64,000 nt of DNA from Okamejei kenojei (Eukaryota). The notes beneath the pieces are model-generated. The model was given only the letters and a program-made list of their open reading frames with translations, was not told the DNA's origin and did no database searches. The position numbers were made by a program, and so were the translations under genes. The DNA lies in NCBI GenBank assembly GCA_035221665.1, contig CM069141.1, forward strand, positions 47,182,001-47,246,000. Reading direction: 5' to 3'. The first letter of the stretch is position 1; each line of letters starts with the position of its first letter. Positions 723 to 63,405 of the stretch are shown one piece after another.

Positions 723-1012
723 CTTCTGATCTTCTGATCATTGTTCTGTTGATTGGTATCAAGTGTAAACAAGACAGAAATAACATTCAAGCGTATAACT
801 CCCGCAGTTATTTCTACAATCCTGGCGATTCTCACGGCGCGTTCAATGGAAGACTTGCCATGGAGGAAACTTTACGCAATCCAGGTACAGGAAGGGTAGT
901 GCGCGTGTCAGATCTGAATCAATACTCGGCCTGTCTGTCTCCAGAATCAGCGAAAAGCGGTTTTCTCTTCTTGAAGCCATGCGGCGCTTCCACTTCCTAA
1001 GCTCAATGCTAA
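723..1012 (+). pseudogene. Protocadherin 3' fragment (TM end plus cytoplasmic tail), third subtype 'C'
   Basis: LLIGIKCKQDRNNIQAYNSRSY...QYSACLSPESAKSGFLFLKPCGASTS* matches the tails of the intact genes. It has a premature TAA (CAA in paralogs) at 998-1000 and the CR1 insertion upstream. Confidence 0.85.
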
Positions 1013-1469
1013 ATGGCGCTGATGGGTTGTGTTAAGGAATACCATCTTATTTTAAATGCAGCCATTTTATCTGCTCAGGAATATGAATCAGTACGAGTGG
1101 AATATTAATGAAAACACCCCCTTGTAGCATATTTTCTTTCGTGTAATTGGGAGGAAAGTATTAGTAATTGTCAAAAATAAAATTTCCTGCAACTGGAATG
1201 AAAATGCATCTATTAATTCGGAATGCAGTCTTTCTGTTTGTCACAGGCTAATGTGCACAAATGTGTTGTCATTTAGTTACTTACTTACTCAAAGGATTTG
1301 GGATACTTGTACCCAGTTCCATGGCTAGGTATTAACAAGGGACATTTGCGTTGAAATGTTTCCTGATTGCCTACCGATGCATTATATATTAATTCTTAAT
1401 AGTTCGTTTTACAAAACACAAATTACAATAATCATCAGATGCACGAAATAACGAAACAGGTATATTTGA

Positions 1470-2000
1470 AAGGTAAGTGATTGCTGATGCTGAAATCATG
1501 AGCACAATCTGCCAGAAGAAATCAACGAGCCAGGCACCACCTCTGGAGAGAAACAGGCCGATGACGTTTGACTTCGAGCCCAAAGTGGAGGAAGATCGAT
1601 TTAGAAGTAGGCGAGGTTGCGGCTTTAGGGTAAAGTATAGCAACTGAAAGCTGGATCCAGGTGAGAAGGTAGTTGGTAGTTGATTATTAGGGAGTTGATT
1701 CGGTGAAGGATATTGTTAGTTGAGGAGAAGTGGTTGAGTCTCCATTCGTAGTTTCCCAATGCTTCATGGAAGTGCAAAGCGACGTCGTCCATAATAAAAA
1801 AATGAGTATTGGCATAAAATCTGCAAGTTGTTAAAGTGATGGAGAGCATGTGAGGTGTGTTCGGATGGAGGATGGATTGAACAGGACTGGGTGGGGGACC
1901 GGCGATAGATTCGATTTATGAGGAGATGAGTTTAGTCGGACAATAGCAGGCAGGAAACAATGGCCTAAACAGGACTGCGCTATCTACGGATCCCAGGCAG
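1470..2000 (-). mobile_element. Ancient degenerate Penelope-like RT remnant; paralogous copy at ~10890-11420
   Basis: Minus strand reads, across frameshifts, ...IVSACYCPTKLISS...SHALHHFNN...FIMDD, resembling the PLE RT N-terminal region. Confidence 0.5.
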
Positions 2001-3234
2001 TACACTGGATACACTGAACATGTTGGGCTACACATGTGGGAGCAGTAAAATTCTATGTCGAGAAACGGGGCTGTTTTTCACACCGACAACAAGTGAAACT
2101 ACATTTGTTTGGAGAACTGGTGAGTAGCAGAAGAAGGAGGAAACATGTGTGAATGTAGCATTATGCCATTTGCTCTGTGTAATGTACTGCTCACGTACCC
2201 AGAAATCGGCAAGAGATCAGGGTGTCCCTGCTTGTCCCATTCCACTAATTAGCTATCACTTTCAATGCAATTCACTGGGCAAAGATTACCCTTCCCTGTC
2301 TGCTCAGAAATTGACAAATATCACCCCTTCACTAATCCCTGGTCTCGCTTTGCAACCACTCACCTTCCGTTGGCAGTTTCCCATGAAAACACAAAATATG
2401 TAACGTTCTTATACAGTACCATTTCCCTTGCATTGTACATGAGCAAAACATCTTCCCGGTAAATCAGCGATCCGCTTGCACGTGTTTTCAATGTAATGTA
2501 GATGTTTGGTCTTCTCAATGTGCTGCACTGCCATGAGACATTGGAGCACAATTAGGCCACTGGCACAATCGAGGCTGCTGCGCCATTCGATCAGGGCTGA
2601 TATATTTCCCCTCTCTCCCTTAGCCTTTGATGCCCTTACTGATCAAGAACCTATTCATCTCTGCCTTAACAATGTACTATAACGACTTCGACATAAAATT
2701 GTGGCACTTAATTCCACAGATTCACCAGCCACTGGAAAAATAAATTCTTATTGATCACCATTCTAAATGAGCGGCATTTTCTTGTGAGGCTGTGCCCCAT
2801 TTTCCTAGATGATCTCACAAATATCCTCTCCACAACCATTCCATCTAGATCGCTTAGTCCTGCGGTTAGTCTGCAGCAAAGAAATAATGAAACTAAATTT
2901 CCGGTTACTTACACCATTCATTCAGAAAGTCACGAACAACTGATCTTTCTGCAAATTACCTCTAGCGCTGTTGGAGCGAGGGCAAGGTTAAGGCACACGC
3001 TTGGAAACCAGTTCCTCGACTTTGATATGGACAAGTTGCCACCTGACCACTCCTGTCTGTTTTCCTTACGGGTTAGTTTCTTTCTCTATTTTGCATTGAG
3101 CTGAAGAGCATAGAAACAAACCCGTCGCTTACTGCATCTGCACTAACCACTGTGTTTATTTGTATTAATTACACTCTTCCGTGAATTCCGTCACGATCAG
3201 TGCCCACTAATTCCCACACTCGTTAAGTACCATA

Positions 3235-4854
3235 CAGTGGCTTGCAAAAGTTTTCATACCCCTTGAACTTTTCCACATTTTGTCACGCTACAACCACAAA
3301 CGTAAATATATTTTACTGGGATTTTATGTGACAGACCAACACAAAGTGGCGCATAATTGTGACGTGGTAGGAAAATGATACATGGTTTTCAAATTGTTTT
3401 ACAAATAAAAAACTGAAAAGTGTGGCGTGCAAAAGTATTCAGCCCCCTTTACTCTGATACCCCTTAATAAAATCCAGTGCAACCAATTGCCTTCAGAAGT
3501 CACCTAATTAGTAAATAGAGTCCACTTGTGTGTAATCGCATCTCAGTATGAATACAGCTGTTCTGCGAAGGCCTCAGAGGTTTGTTAGAGACCATTAGTG
3601 AACAAACAGCATCATGAAGCCCAAGGAACACACCAGACAGGTCAGGGATAAAGTAGTGGAGAAGTTTAAAGCAGGGTTAGGTTATAAAAAAATATCCCAA
3701 GCTTTGAACATCTCACGGAGCACAGTTCAATTCATCATCCGAAAATGGAGAGTATGGCACAACTGCAAAGCTACCAAGATATGGCCGTCCACCTAAACTG
3801 ACAGGCCAGGCAAGGAGAGCATTGATCAGAGATGCAGCCAAGAGGCCCATGGTAACTCTGGAGGAGCTGCAGAGATCCACAGCTCAGGTGGGAGAATCTG
3901 TCCACAGGACAACTATTAGACATGCACTCCACAAATCGGGCCTTTATGGAAGAGTGGCAAGAAGAAAGCCATTGCTGAAACAACGTCATCAGAAGTCCCG
4001 TTTGCAGTTTGCCACAAGCCATGTGGGGGAAACAGCAAACATGTGGAGGAAGGTGCTCTGGTCTGATGAGACCAAAATTGAAGTTTTTGGCCTAAATGCA
4101 AAACGCTATGTATGGCGGAAAAGTAACACTGCACATCACCCTGAACACACCATCCCCACTGTGAAACATGGTGCTGGCTGCATCACGCTGTGGGGATGCT
4201 TTTCTTCAGCAGGGATAGGGACAGGGACAGGGTCAGAGTTGATGGGAAGATGGATGGAGCCAAATACAGGGCAATCTTAGAAGAAAACCTGTTAGAGTCT
4301 GCAAAAGACTTGAGACTGGGGCGGAGGTTCACCTTCCAGCAGGACAACAAACCTAAACATACAGCCAGAGCTACAATGGATTATTTTAGATCAAAGCATA
4401 TTCATGTGTTAGAATGGCCCAGTCAAAGTCCAGACCTAAATCCAATTGAGAATCTCTGGCAAGACTTGAAAATTGCTGTTCACAGACGCTCTCCATCCAA
4501 TCTGACTGAGCTTGAGCTATTTTGCAAAAATGAATGGGCAAAAATTTCAGTCTCTAGATTTGCAAAGCTGGTAGAGACATACCCCAAAAGGCTTGCAGCT
4601 GTAATTGCAGCGAAAGGTGTTTCTACAAAGCATTGACTCAGGGGGGCCGAATACTTTTGCACGCCACACTTTTCAGTTTTTTATTTGTAATAAAATTTGG
4701 TAACCATGTATCATTTTCCTTGCACTTCACAATTATGCACCACTTTGTGTTGGTCTGTCACATAACATTCCAATAAAATACATTTACGTTTGTGGTTGTA
4801 ACGTGACAAAATGTGGAAAAGTTCCAGGGGTATGAAAACTTTTGTAAGCCACTG
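3235..4854 (+). mobile_element. Full-length Tc1-family DNA transposon (IR/DR type, DD34E) with frameshifted transposase at 3614-4636
   Basis: ~210-bp inverted repeats (3235-3447 and 4641-4854), each with outer and inner direct repeats. Left flank is TA, right flank is AA. Transposase motifs [12 protein letters not shown] and SPDLNPIE, with 34 residues between the second D and the E. The empty site is in the paralog at ~22340. Confidence 0.95.
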
Positions 4855-7175: not shown

Positions 7176-7269
7176 ATTATCTTACGTGATTGCTTTTATG
7201 TGTTGTCCGTATTTTATGTATTGTCTGCTTTACGTTCTGTTTGCTACTGGACATCTGAATTTCCCTGAG

Positions 7270-8020: not shown

Positions 8021-8064
8021 TGCAGTTATTGAAAAGAACTGGCTGTGTCGCTGTCTACCAATGG
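8021..8064 (+). promoter_or_regulatory. Pcdh conserved sequence element (CSE / CGCT box, putative CTCF site) of A1
   Basis: TGCAG-N-TGTCGCTGTCTACCAATG about 260 bp upstream of the ATG. Repeated before every copy and matches the clustered-Pcdh CGCT box. Confidence 0.8.
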
Positions 8065-8309: not shown

Positions 8310-10708
8310 ATGGCGTGCCTACCGAGGTTTGCCTTCACAGTGTTTGTTTCCATGTTTGCGATATATGTGCCGTATCTAATTTCCGGGCAAATTCGTTATT
8401 CTATTCCCGAGGAAATCGAGCAAGGGGCATTTGTTGGGAATATCGCTCAAAATCTGGGCCTGAACGTACGGCAATTGTCAGCTCGCAAATTTCGACTTTG
8501 CTCTGATAACGGCGGACGGTACATCAAGGTTAGTGCTGACAATGGAGTGTTGTCTATTCGTGAAAAAATCGACAGGGAACGTATTTGTGGAGAAGCGGAT
8601 GTGTGTATTATACCCTTCGAAATTGTACTGGACTATCCCTTGGAGGTGTATCGCGGAAAAATAGAGATTCTTGATGTAAATGACAATCCCCCCGCTTTCC
8701 CGCACGGCATCATTGTTCTACGGATATCGGAAACGAGTGCACCAGGTGTACGTTTCCGTCTCGAGAGCGCTGATGATCCTGACATTGGAATAAATACCGT
8801 GGCCGCCTACACAATCAGCTCTCGTGAGCACTTCAGTCTAAAAACACAGAAAACCGAGGACGGGTTTATAATTGCCGAGTTGTTGTTGGAGAAATCTTTG
8901 GATCGAGAGCTGCAATCATCATTTCAATTCCTGCTTACTGCGACTGACGGTGGAACCCCTCAGAGGTCAGGCACAACATAGATTCGCATTAATGTATTGG
9001 ACTTCAATGATAATCCACCAGTGTTCGACCATGATATTTACAGGGGTGTATAAGCGAGAACTCCGCCAAAGGTATCTCGGTGTTGAAAGTCAAAGCACAC
9101 GATGTGGACGAAGGACTGAATGGGAAAATATCGCGTTCTTTTAGTGATGTCGCCGTGCTAAAGTTTCGTAATTTGTTCAGTTTAGACCCAGATACTGGAG
9201 AGATTCGAATCGGTGGGCACTTGGATTTTGAAGAAACAAAGGTCTATTATCTGGATGTTCAAGCTATAGACCACGGCTCAGTTGCAATGACAGGACACTC
9301 CAAAGTGTTGATAAAAGTAATGGACGTAAACGACAATGCACCCGAGATACAGGCGACATCAGCTTCCAATAAAATCCCGGAAAATGCTCCGCCAGGAACT
9401 TTGGTAAGGTTGATCAATGTTGTGGATTGTGATTCTGGAGAGAACGGCCATGTCCTCTGTTCGTTACCAAAGAACATACTATTTAAACTACAAAGAGCAT
9501 CGTATCATTACAAATTAATTACCAGTGAAATGTTGGACCGTGAAGCGATATCTCAGTATAATGTAGCTATTTCGGCATGGGACTTGGGGTCGCCTTCACT
9601 CTCCGCAAATATAACCATCCAGATTACCATTTCAGACGTACACGATAACGCTCCCGGTTTGCTGAATCATCATACAATAACGATGGAGAATAACGCCCCA
9701 GGTGATGGAGAATAACGCCCCAGGTGCATCCATGTTCACAATATCTGCAATGGATGCTGATATAGAACAAAATTGCTATGTATCTTAGTCCTTTGTGGGT
9801 AATCGCATAGAAAACTTGCCATTTTCCACTTACCTCAGCATCAACGCAATAAACGGGACCATTTATGGGTTACACTCCTTTGACTATGAGAAACTCAAAC
9901 ACTTCCAATTACAAGTTCAAGCTCGTGACGCAGGGGTGCCTCCATTGAGCAGCAGTGCTATGCTGAACGTGATCATCCTGGATCAAAATGATAATGCTCC
10001 GATATTTGTTTCGCCGCCAGTACAGAGTGGATCAGCAGCAATGGAGATCGTGCCCCGGTCAGTGGGTCAAGGGTACCTGGTCACCAAGATAATGGCAACT
10101 GATGCAGATTCTGGTCAGAATGCTCGGTTCATTTATCAGATAGTGAAATCTACTGACCCCAGTTTGTACAAAGTTGGACAAAATTCCGGTGAAATTAGAA
10201 CAGCACGCAATATCCTACAGTCAGATATTTCTGTACAAACACTGGTAATCTTGGCGAAGGACAACGGCAGCCAAGCCTCTCCAGTACGGTTACAATCAAC
10301 ATTAAAATATTGGAGAACAGCACTGAAGGAATCGCGGAAACAAGCATCTTATTGATGGATCCAGAATATTTCTCTGATCCAAACGTTTATTTAATCGTTA
10401 TTTTCAGTTGCACTTCGGTTGTCTTTCTTCTGATCATTATTCTGTTGATTGGCATCAAGTGTAAACAAGACAGAAGTAATATTCAAGAGTATAACACCCG
10501 CAGTTATTGTTACAATCGTGGGGATTCTCACGATACATTTAAAGGAAGACCTGCCATGGAGGAAACTTTAGGCTATCCTGGGACAGGCCGGGTAGTCCGC
10601 GTTGCAGATATGAATCAATACTCGGTCTGTCTGTCTCCAGAGTCAGCGAAAAGTGATTTTCTCTTCTTGAAGCCATGCGGCGCTTCCACCTCTCAAGCTC
10701 AAAGCTAA
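8310..10708 (+). pseudogene. Protocadherin A1 pseudogene, close paralog of intact A2
   Basis: ORF pieces 8310-8981, 9080-9715, 9795-10355 and 10310-10708 align with A2. TAG stops at 8979 and ~9786, several frameshifts, and a 22-bp duplication at 9682-9725. Confidence 0.9.
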
Positions 10709-15083: not shown

Positions 15084-15127
15084 TGCAATTGTCGAAAAGA
15101 ACTGGTCGTGTCGCTGTCCACCAATGA
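15084..15127 (+). promoter_or_regulatory. CSE/CGCT box of B1
   Basis: TGCAATTGTCGAAAAGAACTGGTCGTGTCGCTGTCCACCAATG. Confidence 0.8.
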
Positions 15128-15370
15128 GAAGCTCAAGTGCACAGATGGATCCATTGCCCCTTCCACATCCCAGAATAAAAACGTCAGACACGACGAGAGA
15201 GGCGAGCTGTGCCTGCGTTTGTATTGCTAATCAATGTTAGGAGGAAAATATCCCAACTGTTTCGATTCTGTATTTAGATTATATATATATAATTAAATCT
15301 TGTGCTTGGAACATTTTACAAATTACCCGAGGAAGAGGCCTGGTTTTGGACATTGACTGAGCGCGGAACA

Positions 15371-17463
15371 ATGGCGTACCGCCCGAGGTTTTTACTGTGT
15401 TGTGTGTGTTTATGAAATGTGCACCTGGTCTAATTTCCGGGCAAATACATTATTCTTTTCCCGAGGAAATGGCGCAGGGGGCATTTATTGGTTATATCGC
15501 CGAGGATTTGGGCTGAATGTATGGGAATTGTCTGCTCGCAAATTACGACTGATAATGGCGGACGGTACCTGAAGGTTAATTTGGAGAATGGAATATTGTA
15601 TCTTCGTGAAATAATCGATAGGGAACGTATTTGCGGACAGGACGATAAGTGTACTATACCTTTCGAAACAAAACTGGAAAATCCTTCCGAGGTGCATCGC
15701 GGAAAAATCGAGATTGTTGATGTAAATGACAATGGGACCACTTTCCCGCACAACAGCATTGTCCTCCAGATATCGGAAGCGAGCGCACCCGGTCTACGTT
15801 TCCGTCTCGAGAGCGCAGATGATGCTGACATTGGACATTGACAGTGGCCGCCTACACAATCAGTTCCAGTGCGTTCTTTAGTCTAAAAACACTGAAAACC
15901 GATGACGGGTTTATAATCGCCGAAGTGCTGTTGGAGAAATCTTTGGACCGAGAGCTGCAATCATCATTTCAACTATGTTTATGCGAATGACGGTGGGACC
16001 CCTCAGAGATAAGGCACAACTCAGATTCTCATTTCTGTATTGGACTTCAATGATAATCAGTCTGTGTTCGATCGTGATATTTACAGCGGAAGCGTAAGCG
16101 AGAACTCCACCAAAGGTACCTCAGTGATGAAAGTCAAAGCAAATGATATGGACGAAGACTGAATGCTAAGATAACATATTTGTTTAGTGATGTTGCCGTG
16201 CGAAAAGTTGTACGTAATTTGTACCGTATTAGACCAGATACAGGGGAGATTCGCATTGAAGGGCCCTTGGATTTTGAACAAGTAAACGGCTATGCTCTAG
16301 ATTTTAAAGCTGTGGACCACGGCTCGCCTGCAATGACTGGACACTACAATGTGCTGATCAAAGTAATTGATGTGAACGATAAATGCACGCGATAGAGGTG
16401 ACATCAGCTTCTAAACTAAATCCTGGCAAAATGTCCTGCCAGGAACTTTCGTAACTTGACCATTAACATTCATGGACTCGAGATTCTGGAGAGTAACGGC
16501 CAAGTCCTTACTCCAGATCCAAATAACATTTCATTTAAAACTACACATCAGCGACGGACATCATTACAAATTACTTACCAATGAAATATTTGATCTTGAC
16601 CTGATATTGTGTCTACAATACTTATTATTCAGCTTTGGGCACAAGGGGAGTGCATCACTGTCTGCAAATATACATTATATTCAATTTCAGACGATAATGC
16701 TAACAGTCGCGGTTGTGACTTTCTACAAATTTTTCCAGTAAACTGAAGATCCTGCTTGGCAGCGATTCTTCAGATTCCTAACGTTTTCTGGAGAATCAAG
16801 TAACCAATGTATCGAGTCAACATTGACCATAAATTTACTGTGAAGGTACAATTTACGCGTGTAGTTTGTTAAGAGCATCTCACAAAAATCAGATACCGCC
16901 AGAAGCCGTGACTTGGCGGTGTCGCATGGTAGAGTCCCGGTGCATGTGATAATTTTGGATTCTAAATGACAACGCTCGAGTAATTGGTTTCAATCGGAAA
17001 AGGTGGCTTCAGCAAAGCGGAGATCGTAGCTGTGGTCCGGTCAAGGGTACTTGGTCTGCAAAGATAATGTGCACAGGTGCAGATTCTGGTCAGAATGGCG
17101 CGCTCTTTTATCAAGATGATGAATCTATTTGTTCAATGATGCAAAATTCGGTTAAATAAGATCTGCGGAGCGCAAATTTTGCGGTCAGGATGTACTACAC
17201 AAACTCATTTTGGGTCATCTTGGTAAGGACACCTGGGAAAAGCCTTTCAGCGCGTAAAATGAACATTTAGAGTTTGGGAGGACGCTGAAAAATGTCCGAT
17301 GTGGTAGCTTAGTGAAATCTGGTGTTTTTTTGCTCAAATGTTATTTACTCGTCTTTTCAGTTGCCCGTTTTCCGTGTCTTTTCTGATATCGTTTGTTGTT
17401 TGCCATAAGTGTATCACAGGACAGAAAGTAACAGGACAGAGGTCCTCTCTTCAGTCATCATGA
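15371..17463 (+). pseudogene. Protocadherin B1, disrupted; 3' half is very error-rich
   Basis: Collinear with B3 from the ATG at 15371. Indels and stops occur in the 5' half, and indels become dense after ~16380. Confidence 0.75.
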
Positions 17464-28217: not shown

Positions 28218-28261
28218 TGCAGTTATTGAAAAGAACTGGCTGTGTCGCTGTCTACCAATGG
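28218..28261 (+). promoter_or_regulatory. CSE/CGCT box of intact A2
   Basis: TGCAGTTATTGAAAAGAACTGGCTGTGTCGCTGTCTACCAATGG, identical to the A1 element. Confidence 0.8.
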
Positions 28262-28477: not shown

Positions 28478-30871
28478 ATGGCGTACCTACCGACATTTGC
28501 CTTCACAGTGTTTGTTTCCATGTTTGCGATATATGTACCGTATCTAATTTTGGGGCAAATTCATTATTCTATTCCCGAGGAAATCGAGCAAGGGGCATTT
28601 GTTGGGAATATCGCTCAAAATCTGGGCCTGAACGTACGGCAATTGTCAGCTCGCAAATTTCGACTGAGCTCCGATAATGGCGGACGCTACACCAAGGTTA
28701 GTGCTGACAATGGAGTATTGTCTATTCGTGAAATAATCGACAGGGAACGTATTTGTGGAGAAGCGGATATGTGTATTATACCCTTCGAAATTGTACTGGA
28801 AAATCCCTTGGAGGTGTATCGCGGAAAAATAGAGATTCTTGATGTAAATGATAATCCCCCCACTTTCCCGCACGGCAGCATTGCCTTACAGATATCGGAA
28901 GCGAGTGCACCCGGTGTACGTTTCCGTCTCGAGAGCGCAGAAGATCCTGACATTGGAATAAATACCGTGGCCGCCTACACAATCAGTTCTAGTGAGCACT
29001 TCAGTCTAAAAACACAGAAAACCGAAGACGGTTTTATAATTGCCGAGTTGTTGTTGGATAAATCTTTGGATCGAGAGCTGCAATCATCATTTCATCTCTT
29101 GCTTACTGCGACTGACGGTGGAACCCCTCAGAGGTCAGGCACAACTCAGATTCGCATTAATGTATTGGACATCAATGATAATCCACCAGTGTTCGACCAT
29201 GATATTTACAGGGGGAGTATAAGCGAGAACTCCGCCAAAGGTATCTCGGTGTTGAAAGTCAAAGCACACGATGTGGACGAAGGACTGAATGGGAAAATAT
29301 CATATTCTTTTAGTGATGTCGCCGTGCTAAAGGTTCGTAATTTGTTCAGTTTAGACCCAGATACTGGAGAGATTCGAGTTGGCGGGCATTTGGATTTTGA
29401 AGAAACAAAGGTCTATTATCTGGATGTTCAAGCTATAGATCACGGCTCAGTTGCAATGACAGGACACTCCAAAGTGTTGATAAAAGTAATGGACGTAAAC
29501 GACAATGCACCGGAGATACAGGTGACATCTGCTTCCAATAAAATTCCGGAAAATGCTCCGCCAGGAACTTTGATAACGTTGATCAATGTTATGGATCGTG
29601 ATGCTGGAGAGAACGGCCAAGTCCGCTGTTCGTTACCAAAGAACATACCATTTAAACTACAAACAGCATCGGATCATTACAAATTAATTACCAGTGAAAT
29701 GTTGGACCGCGAAGCGATATCTCAGTATAATGTAGCTATTTCGGCATGGGACTTGGGGTCGCCTTCACTCTCCGCAAATATAACCATCCAGATTACTATT
29801 TCAGACGTAAACGATAACGCCCCTTGGTTTGCTGAATCATCCTACAATGTATATGTGATGGAGAATAACGCCCCAGGTGCATCCATATTCACAATATCTG
29901 CAATGGATGCTGATATAGAACAAAATTGCTATGTATCTTACTCCTTTGTGGATAATCAAATCGAAAACTTGCCAGTTTCCACTTACATCAGTATCAACGC
30001 AATAAACGGGACCATTTATGGGTTACACTCCTTTGACTATGAGGAACTCAAACATTTCCAAATACAAGTTCAAGCCCGTGACGCAGGGGTGCCTCCATTG
30101 AGCAGCAGTGCTATGCTGAACGTGATCATCCTGGATCAAAATGATAATGCTCCGATATTTGTTTCCCCGCCAGTACAGAGTGGATCAGCAGCAATGGAGA
30201 TCGTGCCCCGGTCAGCAGGTCAAGGGTACCTGGTCACCAAGATAATGGCAACTGATGCAGATTCTGGTCAGAATGCTCGGTTCATTTATCAGATAGTGAA
30301 ATCTACTGACCCCAGTTTGTACAAAATTGGACAAAATTCCGGTGAAATTAGAACAGCGCGCAATATCCTACAGTCAGATATTTCCGTACAAACACTGGTC
30401 ATCTTGGCGAAGGACAACGGGCAGCCAAGCCTCTCCAGTACGGTTACAATAAACATTAAAATATTGGAGAACAGCACTGAAGGAATCGCGGAAACAAGCA
30501 TCTTATTGATGGATCCAGAATATTTCTCTGATCCAAACGTTTATTTAATCGTCATTTTCAGTTGCACTTCCGTTGTCTTTCTTCTGATCATTATTCTGTT
30601 GATTGGCATCAAGTGTAAACAAGACAGAAATAATATTCAAGGGTATAACTCCCGCAGTTATTGTTACAATCGTGGGGATGCTCACGACACGTTTAAAGGA
30701 AGACCTGCCATGGAGGAAACTTTACGCTATCCTGGGACAGGCCGGATAGGCCGCGTAGGCCGCGTTGCAGATATGAATCAATACTCGGTCTGTCTGTCTC
30801 CAGAGTCAGCGAAAAGTGATTTTCTCTTCTTGAAGCCATGCGGCGCTTCCTCCTCTCAAGCTCAAAGCTAA
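28478..30871 (+). CDS. Intact clustered-type protocadherin A2, 797 aa: signal peptide, 6 cadherin repeats, TM and short PCDH10-like tail
   Basis: Uninterrupted ORF with GQIHYSIPEE start of EC1, EC1 C-X5-C, repeated DxNDNxP, DRE/DFE/DYE and AxDxGxP motifs, TM VYLIVIFSCTSVVFLLIIILLIGI and tail CLSPESAKSDFLFLKPC. Confidence 0.95.
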   Translation: MAYLPTFAFTVFVSMFAIYVPYLILGQIHYSIPEEIEQGAFVGNIAQNLGLNVRQLSARKFRLSSDNGGRYTKVSADNGVLSIREIIDRERICGEADMCIIPFEIVLENPLEVYRGKIEILDVNDNPPTFPHGSIALQISEASAPGVRFRLESAEDPDIGINTVAAYTISSSEHFSLKTQKTEDGFIIAELLLDKSLDRELQSSFHLLLTATDGGTPQRSGTTQIRINVLDINDNPPVFDHDIYRGSISENSAKGISVLKVKAHDVDEGLNGKISYSFSDVAVLKVRNLFSLDPDTGEIRVGGHLDFEETKVYYLDVQAIDHGSVAMTGHSKVLIKVMDVNDNAPEIQVTSASNKIPENAPPGTLITLINVMDRDAGENGQVRCSLPKNIPFKLQTASDHYKLITSEMLDREAISQYNVAISAWDLGSPSLSANITIQITISDVNDNAPWFAESSYNVYVMENNAPGASIFTISAMDADIEQNCYVSYSFVDNQIENLPVSTYISINAINGTIYGLHSFDYEELKHFQIQVQARDAGVPPLSSSAMLNVIILDQNDNAPIFVSPPVQSGSAAMEIVPRSAGQGYLVTKIMATDADSGQNARFIYQIVKSTDPSLYKIGQNSGEIRTARNILQSDISVQTLVILAKDNGQPSLSSTVTINIKILENSTEGIAETSILLMDPEYFSDPNVYLIVIFSCTSVVFLLIIILLIGIKCKQDRNNIQGYNSRSYCYNRGDAHDTFKGRPAMEETLRYPGTGRIGRVGRVADMNQYSVCLSPESAKSDFLFLKPCGASSSQAQS

Positions 30872-36669: not shown

Positions 36670-36713
36670 TGCAATTGTCGAAAAGAACTGGTCGTGTCGC
36701 TGTCCACCAATGA
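36670..36713 (+). promoter_or_regulatory. CSE/CGCT box of B2
   Basis: Identical to the B1 element. Confidence 0.8.

Positions 36714-36876: not shown

Positions 36877-36913
<37 letters not shown>
36866..36913 (+). repeat. (TA)n(TG)n microsatellite in the B2 leader
   Basis: Direct reading. Shorter (TA)n tracts occur at the same place in B1 and B4. Confidence 0.9.
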
Positions 36914-36945
36914 TTAAATCTTGTGCTTGGAACATTTTACGGACT

Positions 36946-38596
36946 ATGGCGCAGGGGGCATTTATTGGGAATATCGCCAAGGATTTGGGGCTGAATGTAT
37001 GGGAATTGTCTGCTCGCAAATTACGACTGAAGTCTGATAATGGCGGACGATACCTGAAGGTTAATTTGGAGAATGGAATATTGTCTCTTCGTGAAAGAAT
37101 CGACAGGGAACCTATTTGCGGACAGGTCGATAAGTGTACTATACTTTTCGAAACAATACTGGAAAATCCTTCCGAGGTGCATCGCGGAAAAATCGAGATT
37201 TTTGATGTAAATGACAATGCGCCCACTTTCCCGCACAACAGCATTGTCCTCCAGATATCGGAAGCGAGCGCACCCGGTGTACGTTTCCGTCTGGAGAGCG
37301 CAGATGATGCTGACATTGGAATAAATACCATGGCCGCCTACACAATCAGTTCCAGTGCGTACTTGAGTCTAAAAACACAGAAAACCGATGGCGGGTTTAT
37401 AATCGCCGAATCAGAGATCAGGCACAACTCAGATTTTCATTTCTGTATTGGACTTCAATGATAATCAGCCTGGGTTCGATCGTGATATTTACAGGGGAAG
37501 CGTAAGCGAGAACTCCACCAAAGGTACCTCAGTGATGAAAGTCAAAGCAAATGATATGGATTGAGGACAGAATGCTAAGATAACATATTTGTTTAGTGAT
37601 GTTGCCGTGCGAAAAGTTCGTAATTTGTTCCGCTTAGACCCAGATACCGGTGAGATTCGCATTGAAGGGCCCTTGGATTTTGAACAAGCAAACGGCTATG
37701 CTCTAGATGTTAAAGCTGTGGACCACGGCTCGCCTGCAATCACTGGACACTAGAAAGTGCTGATCAAAGTAATTGATGTGAACGATAATGCACCCGAGAT
37801 AAAGGTGACATCCGCTTCCAACAAAATCCCGGAAAATGCTCCGCCAGGAAATTTCGTAACGTTGATCAGTGTTATGGATCGAGATTCTGGAGAGAACGGC
37901 CAAGTTCGCTGCAAGATACCAAATAACATTCCATTTCAACTACAATCAGCGACGGATCATTACAAATTAATTACCAGTGAAATATTTGATCGTGAAGTGA
38001 TATCCGTGTATAACATACTTATTTCCGCTTGGGACAAGGGGTGGGCATCACTATCTGCAAATATAACCATTCAGATTACAATTTCAGACGTTAATGATAA
38101 CAGTCCACGATTTGCTGAATCTTCCGACAACGTTTATGTCATGGAAAACAATGCTCCGTGTGCGTCCATTTTCACAGTAACTGCACCGTATCCTGACCTG
38201 GAGCAGAATTCTTATGTTTCCTACGCTTTTCTGGAGAATCAAGTCAAAAACTTGCCAGTGTAAAACTTCCAGATTCAAGTCCAAGCCCGTGACACTGGGG
38301 TGCCTCCTCTGAGTAGCAGCGCCACGGTGAATGTGATAATCCTGGATCAAAATGACAACGCTCCGGTAATTGTTTCACCTTCGGAACAAGGAGGATCAGC
38401 AACAGAGGAGATCGTGTCCCGGTCAGTCGGTCAAGGGTACTTGGTCGCCAAGATAATGGCAACTGATGCAGATTCTGGTCAGAATACGCGGCTCTTTTAT
38501 CAGATGGTGAAATCTACCGATCCCAGTTTGTTCAACGTTGGGCAAATTTCCGGTGAAATTAGAACTGCGCGCAATTCATTGCGATCAGATGCTACT
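36946..38596 (+). pseudogene. Protocadherin B2 pseudogene, 5' portion
   Basis: Lacks the native ATG and signal peptide. Internal deletions at ~37410 and ~38260, stops at ~37562 and ~37751, and a break within EC6 at 38596. Confidence 0.9.
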
Positions 38597-39134
38597 ATGA
38601 TTGAACGTTATAAACTTTATGTGCAGCACGTGTAGGGCAGCTGGCCAATAGTCAATTTAAATGGTACGGACGGTCAAAACTAGAAGATGTAGTTTTAAGA
38701 TCAGAGGGAGGAGATTTAGAGCATTCTAGCGGTCTCATCATGTATGAAAAGAAGAACTACATCTGGATTGAATTTGTGCTATAGGTGGTCGAGACAGGAA
38801 AACGCAAATGTGTCAAAGGTACTGAACGGTAATGTGAAAATGCAGGGAATGATGGATATGTAAAATATGTGCCACTATTAGAAGATTGGATTACATTTGA
38901 TGAGAATATTAATTGCATTTGTTGAGAACGTTAATTTCGACCATTACACCAACTGGCCCATCTTTGCGCAGATGTGAAAAACCGAAGGGTCGGGGGGTGG
39001 ATAGGCGAAATTTCGGATCGAACCACTCTTTCAGACAGAAGTACTTATTTACTGAAATGTTACATACACAACCATTCATATATTTGTACAGAATAATGGA
39101 TTCCTATAAAGCGGCCGTTCATTAAAGATACCCA

Positions 39135-39595
39135 TCATTGAGCCTGAGAGAGAGGAGGTCCGCATGGCTTCAAGAAGAGAAAATCGCTTTTAGCTGACTC
39201 TGGAGACAGACGTACAGAGTACTGATGAGATTCCAGGCACGCGGGCTACCCGGCCTGTCCCAGGATAGCGCAAAGTTATCAGGCGTGCCCAGTGTATCTC
39301 CACGATTGTAACAATAAATGGGGGAGTTATACCCTTGGATAATACTTCTGTCCTGTTTACACTTCATGCCAATCAACAGAACGATGATCAGAAGAAAGAC
39401 AGCGGACGTACAACTGAAAATGACGATTAAATAAACATTTGGATCAGAACCCCCCCCCCCCCCCCCCCCCCCCAGATTTTTCATTATGGTACTGCTTTCG
39501 GACATTGCTTCCGTGCTATTCTCCAAAATTCTAATGTTCATTGTGACGGCGCTGGAGAGGCTTGGTTGCCCATTGTCCTTAACCAAGATAACCAG
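39135..39595 (-). pseudogene. Protocadherin B2 3' portion (EC6 end, TM, tail), inverted
   Basis: Minus-strand LVKDNGQPSLSSAVTMNIRILEN...SDPNVYLIVIFSCTSAVFLL continues almost exactly where the + strand part stops. The 3' flank continues inverted to ~38870. Confidence 0.9.
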
Positions 39596-47311: not shown

Positions 47312-48235
47312 GTTTTCTGAACACATTGCAAATCAACGTTCACTGTAAAGGACATTTTAGACAGTAAATATAGTACCAAGAAATTAGTGTTAACTAGGGC
47401 GCATTTTAAACAAACTGCAAATCAATGGGTAATTGGGTCGTTTATTTGCAAATTTCAATAATGGAACCATTGGATGGAAAAAATTGAAACGTAGATTCAA
47501 AAAGGAAATAACAATTCAAAAAATCACCAAATTTACCGTGCTCAACCGTACACAAATCCCTATGTTCGATGCTTCCCCTAATATCCATCCGGGTCTGCGG
47601 GTTATGTGCCTGTGAAACTGCTGCATGCAAGATATATTTTGCAGCAACCCCTCACCTTACTATTGCATATGTCAACAAACTAGTCTTGACGTTGACGTGA
47701 CGATGTCTTTATTCAATATTCACTTACTTCAAACTGGAGTAGCTTCAACAATGCCCAGTCGAAAGCATTATGTGCACGAATACCTTCTCCAATATCTGAA
47801 AAGTGCCAATTCAATTTTTCAGATTATATCCTCTGATTACGGTGGAGGTCAACTTCGCATAAAGTACTTTTGTTATAAAGGGCATGATAATAGACTTCAC
47901 ATGTCAAAGAAGAAATCATTACGTAATCATTATATGAATATATTTTCTTCCTACCCCTATGTGCGATTGTGAAATTTCCAACAGCTGTAAGTAAATAAAT
48001 GATTCCGATATGATAGGTTGCATCATAGAAATACCGATGCCATCCATTTATTCTCTTGCCTTATGACTGACCCGACAGAACGTATTAACGTTCTGGGTCA
48101 AAAACCCTTGGAAAAAGTGAATTGCGATAGTTAAATGCTGCAAACAAAATAGAAGCGTTGTTTTTTTTTAAAATACATGTTATGGTTGCGCATATTTAAA
48201 TAACAGCAGAGCAGTGCAGCTTTAAGAATTGTTGC

Positions 48236-48279
48236 TGCAATTGCCGAAAAGAACTGGTCGTGTCGCTGTCCACCAATGA
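48236..48279 (+). promoter_or_regulatory. CSE/CGCT box of intact B3
   Basis: TGCAATTGCCGAAAAGAACTGGTCGTGTCGCTGTCCACCAATG. Confidence 0.8.
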
Positions 48280-48502: not shown

Positions 48503-50884
48503 ATGGCGTACCGCCCGAGGTTAGCCTTCACTGTGTTTGTGTGCATGTTTACGAAATGTGCACCTGGTCTAATTTCCGGGCAAATGCATTATTCTATTCC
48601 CGAGGAAATGGCGCAGGGGGCATTTATTGGGAATATCGCCGAGGATTTGGGGCTGAATGTATGGGAATTGTCTGCTCGCAAATTACGACTGAAGTCTGAT
48701 AATGGCGGACGGTACCTGAAGGTTAATTTGGAGAATGGAATATTGTCTCTTCGTGAAAGAATCGACAGGGAACGTATTTGCGGACAGGTCGATAAGTGTA
48801 TTATACCTTTCGAAACAATACTGGAAAATCCTTCCGAGGTGCATCGCGGAAAAATCGAGATTTTTGATGTAAATGACAATGCGCCCACTTTCCCGCACAA
48901 CAGCATTGTCCTCCAGATATCGGAAGCGAGCGCACCCGGTGTGAGTTTCCGTCTCGAGAGCGCAGAGGATGCTGACATTGGAATCAATACAGTGGCCGCC
49001 TACACAATCAGTTCCAGTGCGTACTTTAGTCTTAAAACACAGAAAACCGATGACGGGTTTATAATCGCCGAAGTGCTGTTGGAGAAATCTTTGGACCGAG
49101 AGATGCAATCATCATTTCAACTCTTGTTTACTGCGACTGACGGTGGGACCCCTCAGAGATCAGGCACAACTCAGATTCTCATTTCTGTATTGGACTTCAA
49201 TGATAATCAGCCTGTGTTCGATCGTGATATTTACAGGGGAAGCGTAAGCGAGAACTCCACCAAAGGTACCTCAGTGATAAAAGTCAAAGCAAATGATATG
49301 GACGAAGGACAGAATGCTAAGCTAACATATTTTTTTAGTGATGTTGCCGTGCGAAAAGTTCGTAATTTGTTCCGTTTAGACCCAGATACCGGTGAGATTC
49401 GCATTGAAGGGCCCTTGGATTTTGAACAAGCAAACGGCTATGCTCTAGATGTTAAAGCTGTGGACCACGGCTCGCCTGCAATGACTGGACACTCCAAAGT
49501 GCTGATCAAAGTAATTGATGTGAACGATAATGCACCCGAGATAAAGGTGACATCAGCTTCCAACAAAATCCCGGAAAATGCTCCGCCAGGAACCTTCGTA
49601 ACGTTGATCAGTGTTATGGATCGAGATTCTGGAGAGAACGGCCAAGTTCGCTGCAAGATACCAAAGAACATTCCATTTCAACTACAATCAGCGACGGATC
49701 ATTACAAATTAATTACCAGTGAAATGTTTGATCGTGAAGTGATATCTGTGTATAAAATACTTATTTCAGCTTGGGACAAGGGGTCGCCATCACTGTCCGC
49801 AAATACAACCATTCAGATTACAATTTCAGACGTTAATGATAACAGTCCACGATTTGCTGAATCTTCCTACAACATTTATGTCATGGAAAACAATGCTCCG
49901 GGTGCGTCCATTTTCACAGTAACTGCAAGGGATCCTGATCTGGAGCAGAATTCTTATGTTTCCTACGCTTTTCTGGAGAATCAAGTCAAAAACTTGCCAG
50001 TGTCCACTTACCTGACCATTAACTCAATGAACGGTACAATTTACGCGCTGCGCTCGTTTGACTATGAACATCTAAAACACTTCCAGATACACGTTCAAGC
50101 CCGTGACGCTGGGGTGCCTCTGCTGAGTAGCAGCGCCACGGTGAATGTGATAATCCTGGATCAAAATGACAACGCTCCGGTAATTGTTTCACCTTCGGAT
50201 CAAGGTGGATCAGCAACAGAGGAGATCGTGCCCCGGTCAGCCGGTCAAGGGTATTTGGTCACCAAGATAATGGCAACTGATGCAGATTCTGGTCAGAATG
50301 CGCGGCTCTTTTATCGGATGGTGAAATCTACCGATCCCACTTTGTTCAACGTTGGGCAAAATTCCGGTGAAATAAGAACTGCGCGCAATATTTTGCAGTC
50401 TGATGCTACTGCACAAACTCTGGTCATCTTGGTTAAGGACAATGGGCAACCAAGCCTGTCCAGCGCCGTTACAATGAACATTAGAGTTTTGGAGAACAGC
50501 ACTGAAGCAATGTCCGAAAGCAGTATCTTAGTGAAAAATCTGGGGTTTTTTTCTGATCCAAATGTTTATTTAATCGTCATTTTCAGTTGCACGTCCGCTG
50601 TCTTTCTTCTGATCATCGTTCTGTTGATTGGCATCAAGTGTAAACAGGACAGAAGTATTATCCAAGGGTATAACTCCCCCAGTTATTGTTACAATCGTGG
50701 AGATTCACAGGGCACGTTTAATGGAAGAGCCGTCATGGAGGAAACTTTACGCTATCCTGGGACAGGCCGGGTAGCCCGCGTGCCAGAATCGCATCAGTAC
50801 TCTGTATGTCTGTCTCCAGAGTCAGCTAAAAGCGACTTTCTCTTCTTGAAGCCATGCGGAGCTCCTCTCTCTCAGGCTCAATGA
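48503..50884 (+). CDS. Intact clustered-type protocadherin B3, 793 aa from the ATG at 48503
   Basis: Uninterrupted ORF with ACAATGG start context, signal peptide, six cadherin repeats, TM and tail CLSPESAKSDFLFLKPCGAPLSQAQ*. Confidence 0.95.
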   Translation: MAYRPRLAFTVFVCMFTKCAPGLISGQMHYSIPEEMAQGAFIGNIAEDLGLNVWELSARKLRLKSDNGGRYLKVNLENGILSLRERIDRERICGQVDKCIIPFETILENPSEVHRGKIEIFDVNDNAPTFPHNSIVLQISEASAPGVSFRLESAEDADIGINTVAAYTISSSAYFSLKTQKTDDGFIIAEVLLEKSLDREMQSSFQLLFTATDGGTPQRSGTTQILISVLDFNDNQPVFDRDIYRGSVSENSTKGTSVIKVKANDMDEGQNAKLTYFFSDVAVRKVRNLFRLDPDTGEIRIEGPLDFEQANGYALDVKAVDHGSPAMTGHSKVLIKVIDVNDNAPEIKVTSASNKIPENAPPGTFVTLISVMDRDSGENGQVRCKIPKNIPFQLQSATDHYKLITSEMFDREVISVYKILISAWDKGSPSLSANTTIQITISDVNDNSPRFAESSYNIYVMENNAPGASIFTVTARDPDLEQNSYVSYAFLENQVKNLPVSTYLTINSMNGTIYALRSFDYEHLKHFQIHVQARDAGVPLLSSSATVNVIILDQNDNAPVIVSPSDQGGSATEEIVPRSAGQGYLVTKIMATDADSGQNARLFYRMVKSTDPTLFNVGQNSGEIRTARNILQSDATAQTLVILVKDNGQPSLSSAVTMNIRVLENSTEAMSESSILVKNLGFFSDPNVYLIVIFSCTSAVFLLIIVLLIGIKCKQDRSIIQGYNSPSYCYNRGDSQGTFNGRAVMEETLRYPGTGRVARVPESHQYSVCLSPESAKSDFLFLKPCGAPLSQAQ

Positions 50885-51850: not shown

Positions 51851-51856
51851 CAAAAC

Positions 51857-52062: not shown

Positions 52063-52270
52063 TGATCTGAAAATCATTCTGGATAAAAAATGACAAACCA
52101 CCCGTAATGGGTTCGCCCTCAGTATGGAGAGGACAAGCGGCATTGAAGATCGTACCACAGCCAGCGAGTCAGGGTTACTTGGTCATGACGATTATAGCAA
52201 TTGAAGGAGATACAAGTCAGAACACATGGCTCATATCAGGTGGAGTGGTCTACCTGATCCTAGTTCGTTC
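52062..52270 (+). pseudogene. Fossil protocadherin EC5/EC6 fragment; paralog at 40585-40622 plus 43637-43810, split by the gypsy element
   Basis: IILD..ND..PVMGSPSVWRGQAALKIVPQPASQGYLVMTIIAIEGDTSQNTWL aligns to [48 protein letters not shown]. Confidence 0.8.
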
Positions 52271-52925: not shown

Positions 52926-53739
52926 CAGTGGCTTGCAAAAGTATTCATACCCTTGAACTTTTCCACATTTTGTCACGTTACAACCACAAACGTAAATGTA
53001 TTTTATTGGGATTTTATGCGATAGACCAACACAAAGTGGCGCATAATTGTGAAGTGAAAGGAAAATGACACATGGTTTTCGATATTTTTTTACAAATAAA
53101 AAACTGAAAAGTGTGGCGTGCAAAAGTATTCAGCCCCCTTTGCTCTGATATCCCTAAATAAAATCCAATGCAACCAATTTCCTTCAGAAGTCACCTAATT
53201 AGTAAATAGAGTCCACTTGTGTGTAATCTAATCTCAGTATAAATACAGCTGTTCAGTGAAGGCCTCAGGGGTTTGTTAGAGAACATTAGTGAACAAACAA
53301 TGTTCCTTGGACATCATGAAGCCCAAGGAACACACCAGACAGGTCAGGGATAAAGTTGTGGAGGTGTTTAAAGCAGGGTTAGGTTATAAAAAAGATCACA
53401 AGCTTTGAACATCTCACGGAGCACTGTTCAATCCATCATCCAAAAGTGGAAAGAGTATGACAGAACTGCAAACCTACCAATCCACCTAAACTGACAGGCT
53501 GGGCAAGGAGAGCATTGATCAGAGAAGCAGCCAAGTAACTCCGGAGGAGCTGCAAAGATCCACGGCTCAGGTGGGAGAATCTGTCCACAGGACAACTATT
53601 AGTCGTGCACTCCACAAATCCTCCACATGTTTGCTGTGTCCCCCACATGGCTTGTGGAAAACTGCAAACGGGACTTCTTATGGCTTTGTTTCAACAATGG
53701 CTTTCTTCTTGCCGCTCTTCAATAAAGGCCCAATTTGTG
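52926..53739 (+). mobile_element. Second copy of the same Tc1, left half only, with the last ~120 bp inverted
   Basis: TA-CAGTGGCTTGCAAAAG start, collinear with 3235-3938. Segment 53621-53739 is the reverse complement of ~3930-4048. Confidence 0.9.
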
Positions 53740-57881: not shown

Positions 57882-57940
57882 GGATCATGCCCGACTTTGA
57901 ACATCCACTGTAAACTCCAGTAGCATAAATGAAACTACAG

Positions 57941-58954
57941 TATCATTCCCTCAAAACTCGTCCCCAAGCTCCTTGATCATGGACTGGAGACGTCCATCTG
58001 CAGCTGGATATTGGACTTCCTGAGGAGCAGGCCCCAGCTGGTGAGAATTCGCAGCCACACGTCCTCCTCACTGATCCTCAACGCAGGCGCACCACAGGGC
58101 TGTATGCTCAGTCCTCTCCTCTACTCCCTTTTGATGCACGACTGTACTGTTAAGTACAGCTCCAACATCATCTCTAAGTTCGCTGACGACAGGACCATCC
58201 TGGGCCTCATCACAGACAATAATGAGACGTCCTATAGAGAGGAGGTAATGGCACTAAACAGCTGGTGTCGGGAAAATAAACTCTCTATCAATGTCGACAA
58301 ACACCACCCCATCCACATCGGTGATGCTGAGGTTCAAAGTCAGCAGCTTCAAGTTCCTCGGTGTGCACATTACTGAGGACCTCTCTTGGACACTGCACAT
58401 GGACAGAATATCTAAGAAAGCCCGCCAGCAGATCTTTTTCCTGAGAAGACTGAGGAAGTTTGGCATGAATGCCAGCATCCTCACAAAACTCTACAGTTGC
58501 ACAATCGAGAGTCTGTTGATGGGCTGCAACACAGTCTGGGAACTGTTCTGCCCACACCCGCAAATCACTACAGAGAGTGGTGAAGGCGGCACAGCACATC
58601 ACTGGCAACTGTCTCCCTGTCATTCAGGACATTTTCCACAGACAGTGTCTGCGGAAGGCACACAACATCATCAAGGACCATAGCCACCCAGCACGCAGAC
58701 TGTTCTCCTTGTTACCGTCAGGCAGACGATACAGGAGCATGGCTGCACGTACCAACAGACTTTAGAACAGTTTTTATCATCATGCCATCAGGCTTCAGAA
58801 CTAAACACATCATATATGTTGATTATTTTATCTATTATTGTCTTTTACCTACTAATGTCACTTTTATCTTATCTTTTCCGTTGTCTTATCAAACACATTT
58901 CATTGTATCGTTGACCCTGTGTTAACCTTATATGACAAATAAAACTGACCTGGA
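57941..58954 (+). mobile_element. Rex1/Babar-like LINE 3' fragment, duplicate of 46311-47311
   Basis: Same RT motifs, same 5' truncation point and same insertion site. Confidence 0.85.
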
Positions 58955-59871: not shown

Positions 59872-59913
59872 TGCAATGTCAAAAATGACTTGTTGTGTCG
59901 CTGTCCACCAATG
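59872..59913 (+). promoter_or_regulatory. CSE/CGCT box of B4 (core intact, upstream spacer 1 bp shorter)
   Basis: TGCAATGTCAAAAATGACTTGTTGTGTCGCTGTCCACCAATG. Confidence 0.75.
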
Positions 59914-60163: not shown

Positions 60164-62347
60164 ATGGCGTACCGACCGAGGTTTGCATTCACTGTGTTTG
60201 TCTGCATGTGTACGAAATGTGCACCGGGTCTAATTTCCGGGCAAATGCGTTATTCTATTCCCGAGGAAATGGAGCAGGGGTCATTTGTTAGGAATATCGC
60301 CGAGGATTTGGGGCTTAATGTATGGCAATTGTCTACTCGCAAATTACGACTGAAGTCTGATAATGGCGGACGGTACCTGAAGGTTAATTTGGAGAATGGA
60401 ATATTGTCTCTTCGTGAAATAATCGACAGGTTGCGTATTTGCGGACAGGACGATAAGTGTACTGGAACTGATTGTGGCCGCCAGCACAATCAGTTCCAGT
60501 GCGCACTTTAGTCTAAAAACACAGAAAACCGATGACGGGTTTATAATCATCATTTGCATCATCGTGCAATCATCATTTCAACTCTTGTTTACTGCGACTG
60601 ACGGTGGTACCCCTCAGAGATCAGGCACAACTCAGATTCTCATTTCTGTATTGGACGTCAATGATAATCAGCCTGTGTTCGATCGTGATATTCACAGGGG
60701 AAGCGTAAGCGAGAACTCCACCAAAGGTACCTCAGTGATAAAAGGCAAAGCAAATGATATGGACGAAGGACAGAATGCTAAGATAACTTATTTGTTTAGT
60801 GATGTTGCCATGCGAAAAGCTAGTAATTTGTTCCGTTTAGACCCAGATACCGGTGAGATTCGCATTGAAGGGCCCTTGGATTTTGAACAAGCAAACGGCT
60901 ATGCTCTACATGTTAAAGCTGTGGACCACGGCTCGCCTGCAATGACTGGACACTCCAAAGTGCTGATCAAAGTAATTGATGTGAACGATAATGCACCCGA
61001 GATAGAGGTGACATCAGCTTCCAACAAAATCCCGGAAAATGCTCCGCCAGGAACTTTCGTAACGTTGATCAGTGTTATGGATTGAGATTCTGGAGAGAAC
61101 GGCCAAGTTTGCTGCAAGATACCAAATAACATTCCATTTCAACTACAATCAGCGTCGGATCATTACAAATTAATTACCAGTGAAATGTTTGATCGTGAAG
61201 TGATATCTGTGTATAAAATACTTATTTCAGCTTGGGACAACGGGTCGCCATCACTATCTGCAAATATAACCATTCAGATTACAATTTCAGACGTTAATGA
61301 TAACAGTCCACGGTTTGCTGAATCTTCCTACAACATTTATGTCATGGAAAACAATGCTCCGGGTGCGTCCATTTTCACCGTAACTGCAAGGGATCCTGAT
61401 CTGGAGCAGAATTCTTATGTTTCCTACGCTTTTCTGGAGAATCAAGTCAAAAACTTGCCAGTGTCCACTTACCTGACCATTAACTCAATGAACGGTACAA
61501 TTTACGCGCTGCGCTCGTTTGACTTTGAGCATGTCAAAAACTTCCTGATCCACGTTCAAGCCCGTGACGCGGGGGGTGCCTCCGCTGAGTAGTAGCGCCA
61601 CGGTGAATGCGATAATCATGGATCAAAATGACAACGCTCCGGTAATTGTTTCACCTTCGGAACAAGGTGGATCAGCAACAGAGAAGATCGTGCCCCGGTC
61701 AGCCGGTCAAGGGTACCTGGTCACCAAGATAATGGCAACTGATGCAGACTCTGGGTCAGAATGCGCGGCTCTTTTATCAGATGGTGAAATCTACCGATCC
61801 CAGTTTGTTCAACGTTGGGCAAAATTCCGGTGAAATCAGAACTGCGCGCAATATTTTGCAGCTTGTTGCTGCTACACAAACTCTGGTTGTCTTGGTTAAG
61901 GACAATGGCCAGCCAAGCCTCTCCAGCGCGATCACAATGAACATTAGCGTATTGGAGAACAGCACTGAAGCAACGTCCGAAAGCAGTACCTGCGTTAAAA
62001 AACTGGGTTTTTTTTCTCATCCAAATGTTTATTTAATCGTCATTTTCAGTTGTACGTCCGCTGTCTTTCTACTGTTCATCGTTCTGTTGATTGGGATCAA
62101 GTGTAAACAGGACAGAAGTATTATCCAAGGGTATAACTCCCCCAGTTATTGCTGCAATCGTGGAGATTCTCAGGGCACGTTTAATGGAAGAGCCGGCATG
62201 GAGGAAACTTTACGCTATCCTGGGACAGGCCGTGTCGCCCGCGAGCCAGAATCGCATCAGTACTCTGTATGTCTGTCTCCAGAGTCAGCTAAAAGCGATT
62301 TTCTCTTCTTGGAACCACGCGAAGCTCCTGTCTCTCAGGCTCAATGA
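60164..62347 (+). pseudogene. Protocadherin B4 pseudogene
   Basis: Deletions at ~60465 and ~60550, TGA at 61083, and +1 frameshifts at ~61575 and ~61753; otherwise collinear with B3. Confidence 0.9.
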
Positions 62348-63060
62348 TGGGTATCTTTAATGCATGGCCACTTAATATGAATCCATTATTCTATACAAAT
62401 ATATGAATGGTTGTGTATGTAACATTTCAGTAAATAAGTACTTCTGACTGAAGGAGTGGTTCGATCCGAAATTTCCTCTATCCACCCCCTTCGGTTTTTC
62501 ATGTCTGCGCAGAAATGGGCCAGTTGGTGTCATTGTCGAAATTAACATTCTCATCAAATGCAATCCAGTCTTCTAATAGTGGCACCGATTTTCTCTGCAG
62601 GAACCTTACTATTTGAAATTGAATGGGCGTACACAAATGCAATCAAGCCTTCATGCAAGAGTGGTACAAATGTTATTTGTTCAATTACGCGAAAGATCGT
62701 TCTGTATGGATCTCATTGTTTGCTAATGTGTTAATATTGGAACACTGCCATCAGAGCATTCATCTATAAGATAATCCATAGCATAAAAAAAGTAAAAATT
62801 ATAATCCGGGACATTTCAAATGAAGACAACATTATTGTATACAATATGGTGATGCTGGAATCTTAGGGGGTGGGGGTTGCCTCAATCATCTCTAACTGCT
62901 CACCCTGGCCACAAACTCTTTGAAGCACTTCCATCTGGAAAGCGACTCCGGACTGTCAAAACCGCCACAGCCAAAAAAAAAAAAAAAACAGCCCCCCTCC
63001 CCCCCCCCCCCCACGAGCAGTAGCTCTACTCAATAACCAAAAGTTTGTAGCCTCCTTCGC

Positions 63061-63405
63061 TCTGGGTTTTTTTCTGATCCAAATGTTTATTTAATCGTCA
63101 TTTTCAGCTGACCTTCAGCTTTCTTTCTTCTCATCATCATTCTGTTGATTGGCATCAAGTGTAAACAGGACAGAAGTATTATTCAAGGGTATAACTCCCC
63201 CAGTTATTGTTACAATCGTGGATATGAGGAGGGCACGTTTAATGGAAATGCCGTAATGGAGGAAACTTTACGTTATCTTGCGACAGTGCGGGTATCCCGC
63301 GCGCCAGAATCGCATCCGTACTCCGTCTGTCTGTCTCCAGAGTCAGCTAAAAGCGATTTTCTCTTCTTGAAGCCATTCGGAGCTCCTGTCTCCCAGGCTC
63401 AATGA
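63061..63405 (+). pseudogene. Orphan protocadherin B5 3' fragment (TM plus tail) with its own 3' flank
   Basis: FFSDPNVYLIVIFS...IGIKCKQDRSIIQGY...PESAKSDFLFLKPFGAPVSQAQ*, with no promoter or ectodomain upstream. Confidence 0.9.

Follow-up and report, generated by a model that had tools for sequence, protein, structure and literature searches.

What are the tandem protocadherin genes in this part of the genome of the skate Okamejei kenojei, and do they stand alone or splice to constant exons? The window (the whole stretch of 64,000 nt that was analysed, positions 47,182,001-47,246,000 of contig CM069141.1, hereafter C11) had been presented in a preliminary description as an array of single-exon protocadherins without constant exons, combining clustered-type promoters with a tail like that of PCDH10, and possibly representing a new, independently expanded subcluster. 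Six-frame translation and self-BLAST bear out a tandem array on the plus strand, with eight protocadherin copies or fragments in the window, two of which, A2 (797 aa) and B3 (793 aa), are intact open reading frames (ORFs). We consider it highly probable that the window is an internal part of the skate clustered protocadherin (Pcdh) locus and that the array is Pcdh-epsilon, a subcluster named in elephant shark, each intact gene likely being a stand-alone single-exon gene.

Assignment of the array to Pcdh-epsilon

The nearest named homologs come from skates first, then from rays and sharks, in agreement with the chondrichthyan origin suggested earlier; B3 shares 91% identity with a 793-aa RefSeq protein (P0001) of Amblyraja radiata. 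Database cluster look-ups retrieved 18 elephant shark proteins named as epsilon (epsilon4-21; GenBank ABV59322-ABV59339) and seven mu proteins. All 18 epsilon proteins (796-830 aa) carry the tail motif of the skate genes or a variant of it and end 20-50 aa past it without a constant domain; the Pfam scan of elephant shark proteins covered epsilon4 and epsilon18. In trees of the six extracellular cadherin domains (EC1-6), the skate array, elephant shark epsilon and shark and ray homologs form one clade of 53 rows (FastTree, 93 rows, support 100), and the same grouping recurs as a clade of 19 rows (IQ-TREE, 39 rows, support 100/100), while the skate genes at 47.50-47.66 Mb of C11 cluster with mu. 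One 90% database cluster (P0277) mixes elephant shark mu1 and mu2 with epsilon15, 16, 19, 20 and 21 as well as a fused model of 7813 aa; mu and epsilon are nevertheless separate in the tree. The trees exclude the broken window copies, and their bony-vertebrate rows are single EC1-6 units from fused gene models with unreliable automatic names. Four of 97 rows were removed from the larger tree: two distant non-clustered outgroups, a fused elephant shark model near mu5 and a poorly matching otter model.

The position of the array agrees with this assignment. The array extends on both sides of the window, over 46.863-47.485 Mb (about 620 kb), and holds 23 intact ORFs of at least 790 aa and about 53 tails, the tails being counted by hand; EC1 matches extend over 46.43-48.16 Mb. 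Matches to the constant-exon domain PF15974 (Cadherin_tail) lie at three places on C11, 46.459, 47.850 and 48.223 Mb, of nine candidates scored. The set at 46.459 Mb matches tails of unnamed proteins that we take to be of delta type, the set at 47.850 Mb shows a 69% match to elephant shark mu proteins, and the set at 48.223 Mb is taken as nu-type by position alone. Mu variable exons occupy 47.50-47.66 Mb and mu constant exons 47.67-47.85 Mb, and the order along the contig is delta, a lone gene, the array, mu and nu-type. The array thus lies between delta and mu, the position required of Pcdh-epsilon, and has the features of clustered protocadherins: a single large exon encoding signal peptide, EC1-6, transmembrane helix (TM) and variable cytoplasmic domain (VCD), in a tandem array with constant-exon sets in the same locus. 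The description "constant-exon-free" holds for the array but not for the locus.

Within the 93-row tree, A2 and B3 fall inside a 15-row skate clade nested in a batoid clade, and neither has a one-to-one ortholog in elephant shark; this makes the expansion lineage-specific, yet inside epsilon, and what was taken for an independent subcluster is the ortholog of an elephant shark one. Its proposed novelty is lost as well, since the deposited elephant shark epsilon proteins already end without a constant domain. Because epsilon is very likely unspliced, the array is orthologous to a described subcluster but probably not to a spliced one; orthology to a spliced subcluster was the outcome that the preliminary description had set against itself.

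The absence of a one-to-one ortholog could also speak for a new single-exon subcluster derived from, or chimeric with, the non-clustered delta-2 gene PCDH10. PCDH10 is the top match of B3 in the PDB, and the B3 tail motif, which is the end of Pfam PF16492 (Cadherin_C_2), is identical at 14 of 20 aa to that of a gene on contig C1 which we take to be PCDH10-like from the motif quoted in the preliminary description. The same motif, however, is closer (16 of 20) to clustered delta, the lone gene at 46.63 Mb, the first nu-side gene and epsilon5, 17 and 18. Moreover, the skate subclade sits within the epsilon clade in both FastTree and IQ-TREE, and approximately unbiased (AU) tests reject grouping the array with the PCDH10-like gene (p 8e-46), all epsilon with that gene (p 1e-10) and the array with mu (p 3e-4). 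The PCDH10 grouping was judged on EC1-6. An origin from PCDH10 is largely refuted by the IQ-TREE clade and the AU tests, and we give it scarcely any credence; nor are the array genes non-clustered, spliced and grouped with PCDH10, as delta-2 protocadherins are. The trees argue that the PCDH10 likeness of B3 is retained similarity and not descent, and the tail, previously called delta-2-like, is on these identities best read as an ancestral VCD motif not borrowed from delta-2. Judged by eye, its pattern of Gly, Gln/Tyr/Ser, Val, basic/Ser/Thr and aromatic residues agrees with the VCD motif linked to cis association and endolysosomal trafficking (Shonubi 2015, PMC4660814).

Probable single-exon structure and promoter elements

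Each intact unit consists of an upstream CGCT-box and one ORF, whose product has a signal peptide and six cadherin repeats, followed by a TM helix and a cytoplasmic tail of about 85 aa that stops without a good in-phase splice donor. For phase-0 donors, the highest score in each of the 23 array ORFs is 4-6 of 9, compared with 7-9 of 9 in all 11 mu, nu-type and lone ORFs; the donor of the delta gene is GAG/GTGAGT (the slash marks the exon end). A tblastn search of 941 contiguous kb that include the array gave no match to constant exons (best E 0.11), while the positive controls were recovered at 6e-11 and 9e-14. PF15974 is absent from all 120 homologs listed for the C-terminal region of B3, though spliced lengths were eligible. 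On this genomic evidence the array genes are very likely single-exon, as in the beta-like architecture proposed before. Contigs of runs X5 and X6 (guessed to be RNA; share 0.07; one study) fall nearly all on the ORF, with no joints listed; one X5 contig, unproven as RNA and not counted as evidence, passes a paralog-type stop codon into genomic-type flank. Among runs X1-X4, searched against B3, X1 and X3 were flagged as probably DNA, and repeats dominated the tables.

Alternatively, the array genes might be variable exons, joined at least in some transcripts to the mu constant exons further along the contig, with stops that are no more than intron read-through. Mu constant exons 1 and 2, at 47.674 Mb (C11:47,674,531) and 47.677 Mb, do lie on the same strand about 430 kb past the window, with the nu-type set beyond; in-frame stops also appear where genuine mu and nu variable exons are read on past their donors, and some array genes have a donor-like site scoring 7 of 9. 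That site is in phase 1, however, the wrong phase for the phase-0 mu junction, and B3 is without it, while none of the 23 array genes has a phase-0 donor of at least 7 of 9. Many ray and shark homologs keep the stop about 12 aa past the motif, and none of the 21 proteins that include the mu constant exon contains an epsilon exon or has an array gene as its best skate match. The array genes thus show neither the phase-0 donor, nor any sign of the splicing to mu constant exons, nor the mu-clade placement of Pcdh-mu, and we regard such splicing as very improbable.

The clustered-type promoters were found as described. An 18-bp CGCT-box, the conserved sequence element (CSE) GTGTCGCTGTC(T/C)ACCAAT, precedes the actual or expected start by about 235-270 nt in all six copies with a 5' end, and at up to three mismatches no other site occurs in the window. 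In the wider set of genes it was found at 22 of 24 array ORFs, 6/6 mu genes, 3/4 nu-type genes and 0/5 non-clustered genes. The element is common to epsilon, mu and nu and is not specific to the array; a CGCT element is known from the elephant shark protocadherin cluster (PMC2926608).

Several points weigh against identifying the array as single-exon epsilon. The donor score is a crude match count over nine positions, and the 7/9 site (AAA/GTGATT) is carried by several array genes, including A2. The best PDB match of B3 is PCDH10 (623 bits, against 572 for gamma-B4), and many RefSeq homologs bear the name protocadherin-10-like. The trees are without verified mammalian alpha and beta and named elephant shark delta and nu genes, and epsilon1-3 are missing. 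Some of the broken copies may be assembly errors. Finally, the statement that epsilon is without constant exons draws on the deposited proteins and on its absence from the published constant-exon list; the elephant shark subcluster was reportedly described by Yu in 2008 as having none. Jiang 2009 (PMC2764143) names epsilon as an elephant shark subcluster, and the constant exons listed there are those of alpha, gamma, delta, mu and nu.

The lone protocadherin ORF (C11:46,626,980-46,629,709) has the delta constant exon on one side and the epsilon array on the other. It has a strong donor, GAG/GTGAGT, and no CSE match; tblastn found no constant-exon homolog in the next 941 kb, and a representative search was also without a splice partner. 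A bolder reading would hold that a barcode subcluster free of constant exons arose a second time, independently, as epsilon, with fast turnover in skates (a batoid-specific burst, more than half of the copies being broken), the lone gene, with no recognisable constant exons of its own, splicing across about 1 Mb and the whole array to the mu constant exons, with epsilon inside a giant intron. We think this unlikely.

Gene copies, decay and selection in the window

The copies, fragments and promoter elements of the window are as follows.

730..1014, plus strand: c0, tail-only fragment (VCD; SACL…SGFL) with a premature TAA (…ASTS-stop)
8045..8062, plus strand: CSE of A1
8310..10708, plus strand: A1, full-length copy with four frameshifts, 95.6% identical to A2
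15108..15125, plus strand: CSE of B1
15370..17440, plus strand: B1, badly broken B-type copy with about 90 alignment gaps and no VCD tail
28242..28259, plus strand: CSE of A2
28478..30871, plus strand: A2, intact Pcdh-epsilon gene (signal peptide, EC1-6, TM, VCD of about 85 aa, SQAQS-stop end, 797 aa)
36694..36711, plus strand: CSE of B2
36898..38600, plus strand: B2, 5' part, start and signal region gone, deletions of 80 nt and 72 nt
39135..39595, minus strand: B2 tail, inverted and frameshifted
48260..48277, plus strand: CSE of B3
48503..50884, plus strand: B3, intact Pcdh-epsilon gene, 793 aa, SQAQ-stop end
59895..59912, plus strand: CSE of B4
60164..62347, plus strand: B4, broken B-type copy, about 180 nt gone across EC1/EC2, further frameshifts, tail …EPREAPVSQAQ-stop
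63064..63405, plus strand: B5, duplicated TM+VCD tail alone

The claim that every copy ends in SQAQ(S) and a stop stands in part. A-type tails do end in SQAQS and B-type tails in SQAQ, 11-12 aa past the tail motif, but B1 has no tail, c0 stops early and the B2 tail is inverted. Other details proved accurate: AAAGTGAT in the A type matches the position of AAAGCGA in the B type near the tail end, and the 3' flanks are conserved, within the A type and within the B type. The exact 21-aa tail string QYSVCLSPESAKSDFLFLKPC is present in three of seven window tails (A1, A2 and B3). The intact window genes contain PF08266, five copies of PF00028 and PF16492, and candidate transcript-end signals are AATAAA at +160 and +417 past the A2 stop, and ATTAAA at +208 and AATAAA at +950 past the B3 stop.

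Three of the four frameshifts of A1 are single-base deletions and possibly assembly errors. In B1 the small indels get denser from 5' to 3', a pattern that looks more like a poor-quality consensus than natural decay. The single delta variable exon (about 46,437,100 on C11) has a one-base frameshift in EC4, possibly introduced by the assembly, a hint that the same holds for some array "pseudogenes".

The 5' part of c0 lies just outside the window on its upstream side (C11:47,178,087-47,180,334), separated from the c0 tail by a reverse-transcriptase ORF (1-871, minus strand). This ORF is among several remnants between copies that by eye resemble the reverse transcriptase/endonuclease of long interspersed nuclear elements: 24646-27523, 31572-33364, 46557-47348 and 57933-58683 on the plus strand, and 53691-54284 on the minus strand. 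A Tc1/mariner-like transposase remnant (3708-4636, plus strand) and a Ty3/gypsy-like pol ORF (41369-42769, minus strand), which interrupts the B2 3' flank (region 38600-43640), were likewise recognized by eye in translation. B-type 3' flanks hold small protocadherin fragments of the EC5/EC6 linker (43639-43761 and 52086-52235; about 48% identity), probably leftovers of an older duplicated copy.

The ratio of nonsynonymous to synonymous substitution rates (dN/dS) is 0.25 between A2 and B3 and 0.17-0.38 per domain over 16 intact paralogs, which indicates that the intact genes evolve under purifying selection; EC3 is the most divergent domain in these 16 (70% mean identity).

Proposed function and comparison with known systems

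By analogy with mammalian clustered Pcdhs, CTCF would bind the CSE and loop a chosen promoter to a distal enhancer (PMC7811963), and through this promoter choice different neurons would, we propose, express different subsets of the array. The proteins may bind homophilically through EC1-4 and add to a neuronal self-recognition code in the manner of Pcdh-beta, and the tail motif probably serves in cis association and endolysosomal trafficking. Birth and death shape the array itself, a batoid or skate expansion having occurred inside epsilon and about half of the copies being now broken in the assembly.

The array is a real and ordinary feature, the skate Pcdh-epsilon of a system already described in elephant shark, and its lineage-specific side is limited to the batoid expansion and the decay inside epsilon. 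Its importance is modest and no new mechanism is involved. The delta-epsilon-mu-nu layout of elephant shark is also present in skate, the RefSeq names "protocadherin-10-like" and "gamma-C5-like" on shark and ray proteins of about 795 aa conceal an epsilon subcluster, and the expansion and decay offer a usable example of birth-and-death evolution among neuronal recognition genes. Pcdh tandem clusters in elasmobranchs were previously reported (bioRxiv 10.1101/2025.06.08.657570); no account of epsilon in skates was found in the literature searched, which left most subscription papers out of reach.

Elephant shark epsilon and the skate array fall in one EC1-6 clade and share proteins of about 800 aa with the same tail motif and no constant domain; the skate array lies upstream of mu, a position that the accession order suggests for elephant shark epsilon too. 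The dS of 0.44-0.99 across EC domains gives, as in elephant shark epsilon, little indication of gene conversion; a ratio of 1.8-2.3 is quoted for elephant shark in the context of gene conversion (PMC2764143). The skate array is larger, with about 53 tails and 23 intact genes against 21 numbered genes, its window genes end sooner after the motif (about 12 aa, compared with 20-50 aa), and, unlike elephant shark epsilon, it shows a batoid or skate expansion with many broken copies. PCDH10 resembles the array genes in its six EC repeats and PF16492 motif, but the PCDH10-like gene differs in lying on another contig outside the clustered clade, in having no CSE and in its donor, GAG/GTAAGG. The published view, as given in PMC2764143, is that epsilon has no bony-vertebrate ortholog. 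An architectural counterpart is Pcdh-beta of mammals and coelacanth, single-exon genes between spliced subclusters with CSE promoters, a short VCD and no constant domain (PMC7811963), features that the skate array shares, very likely including the single exon.

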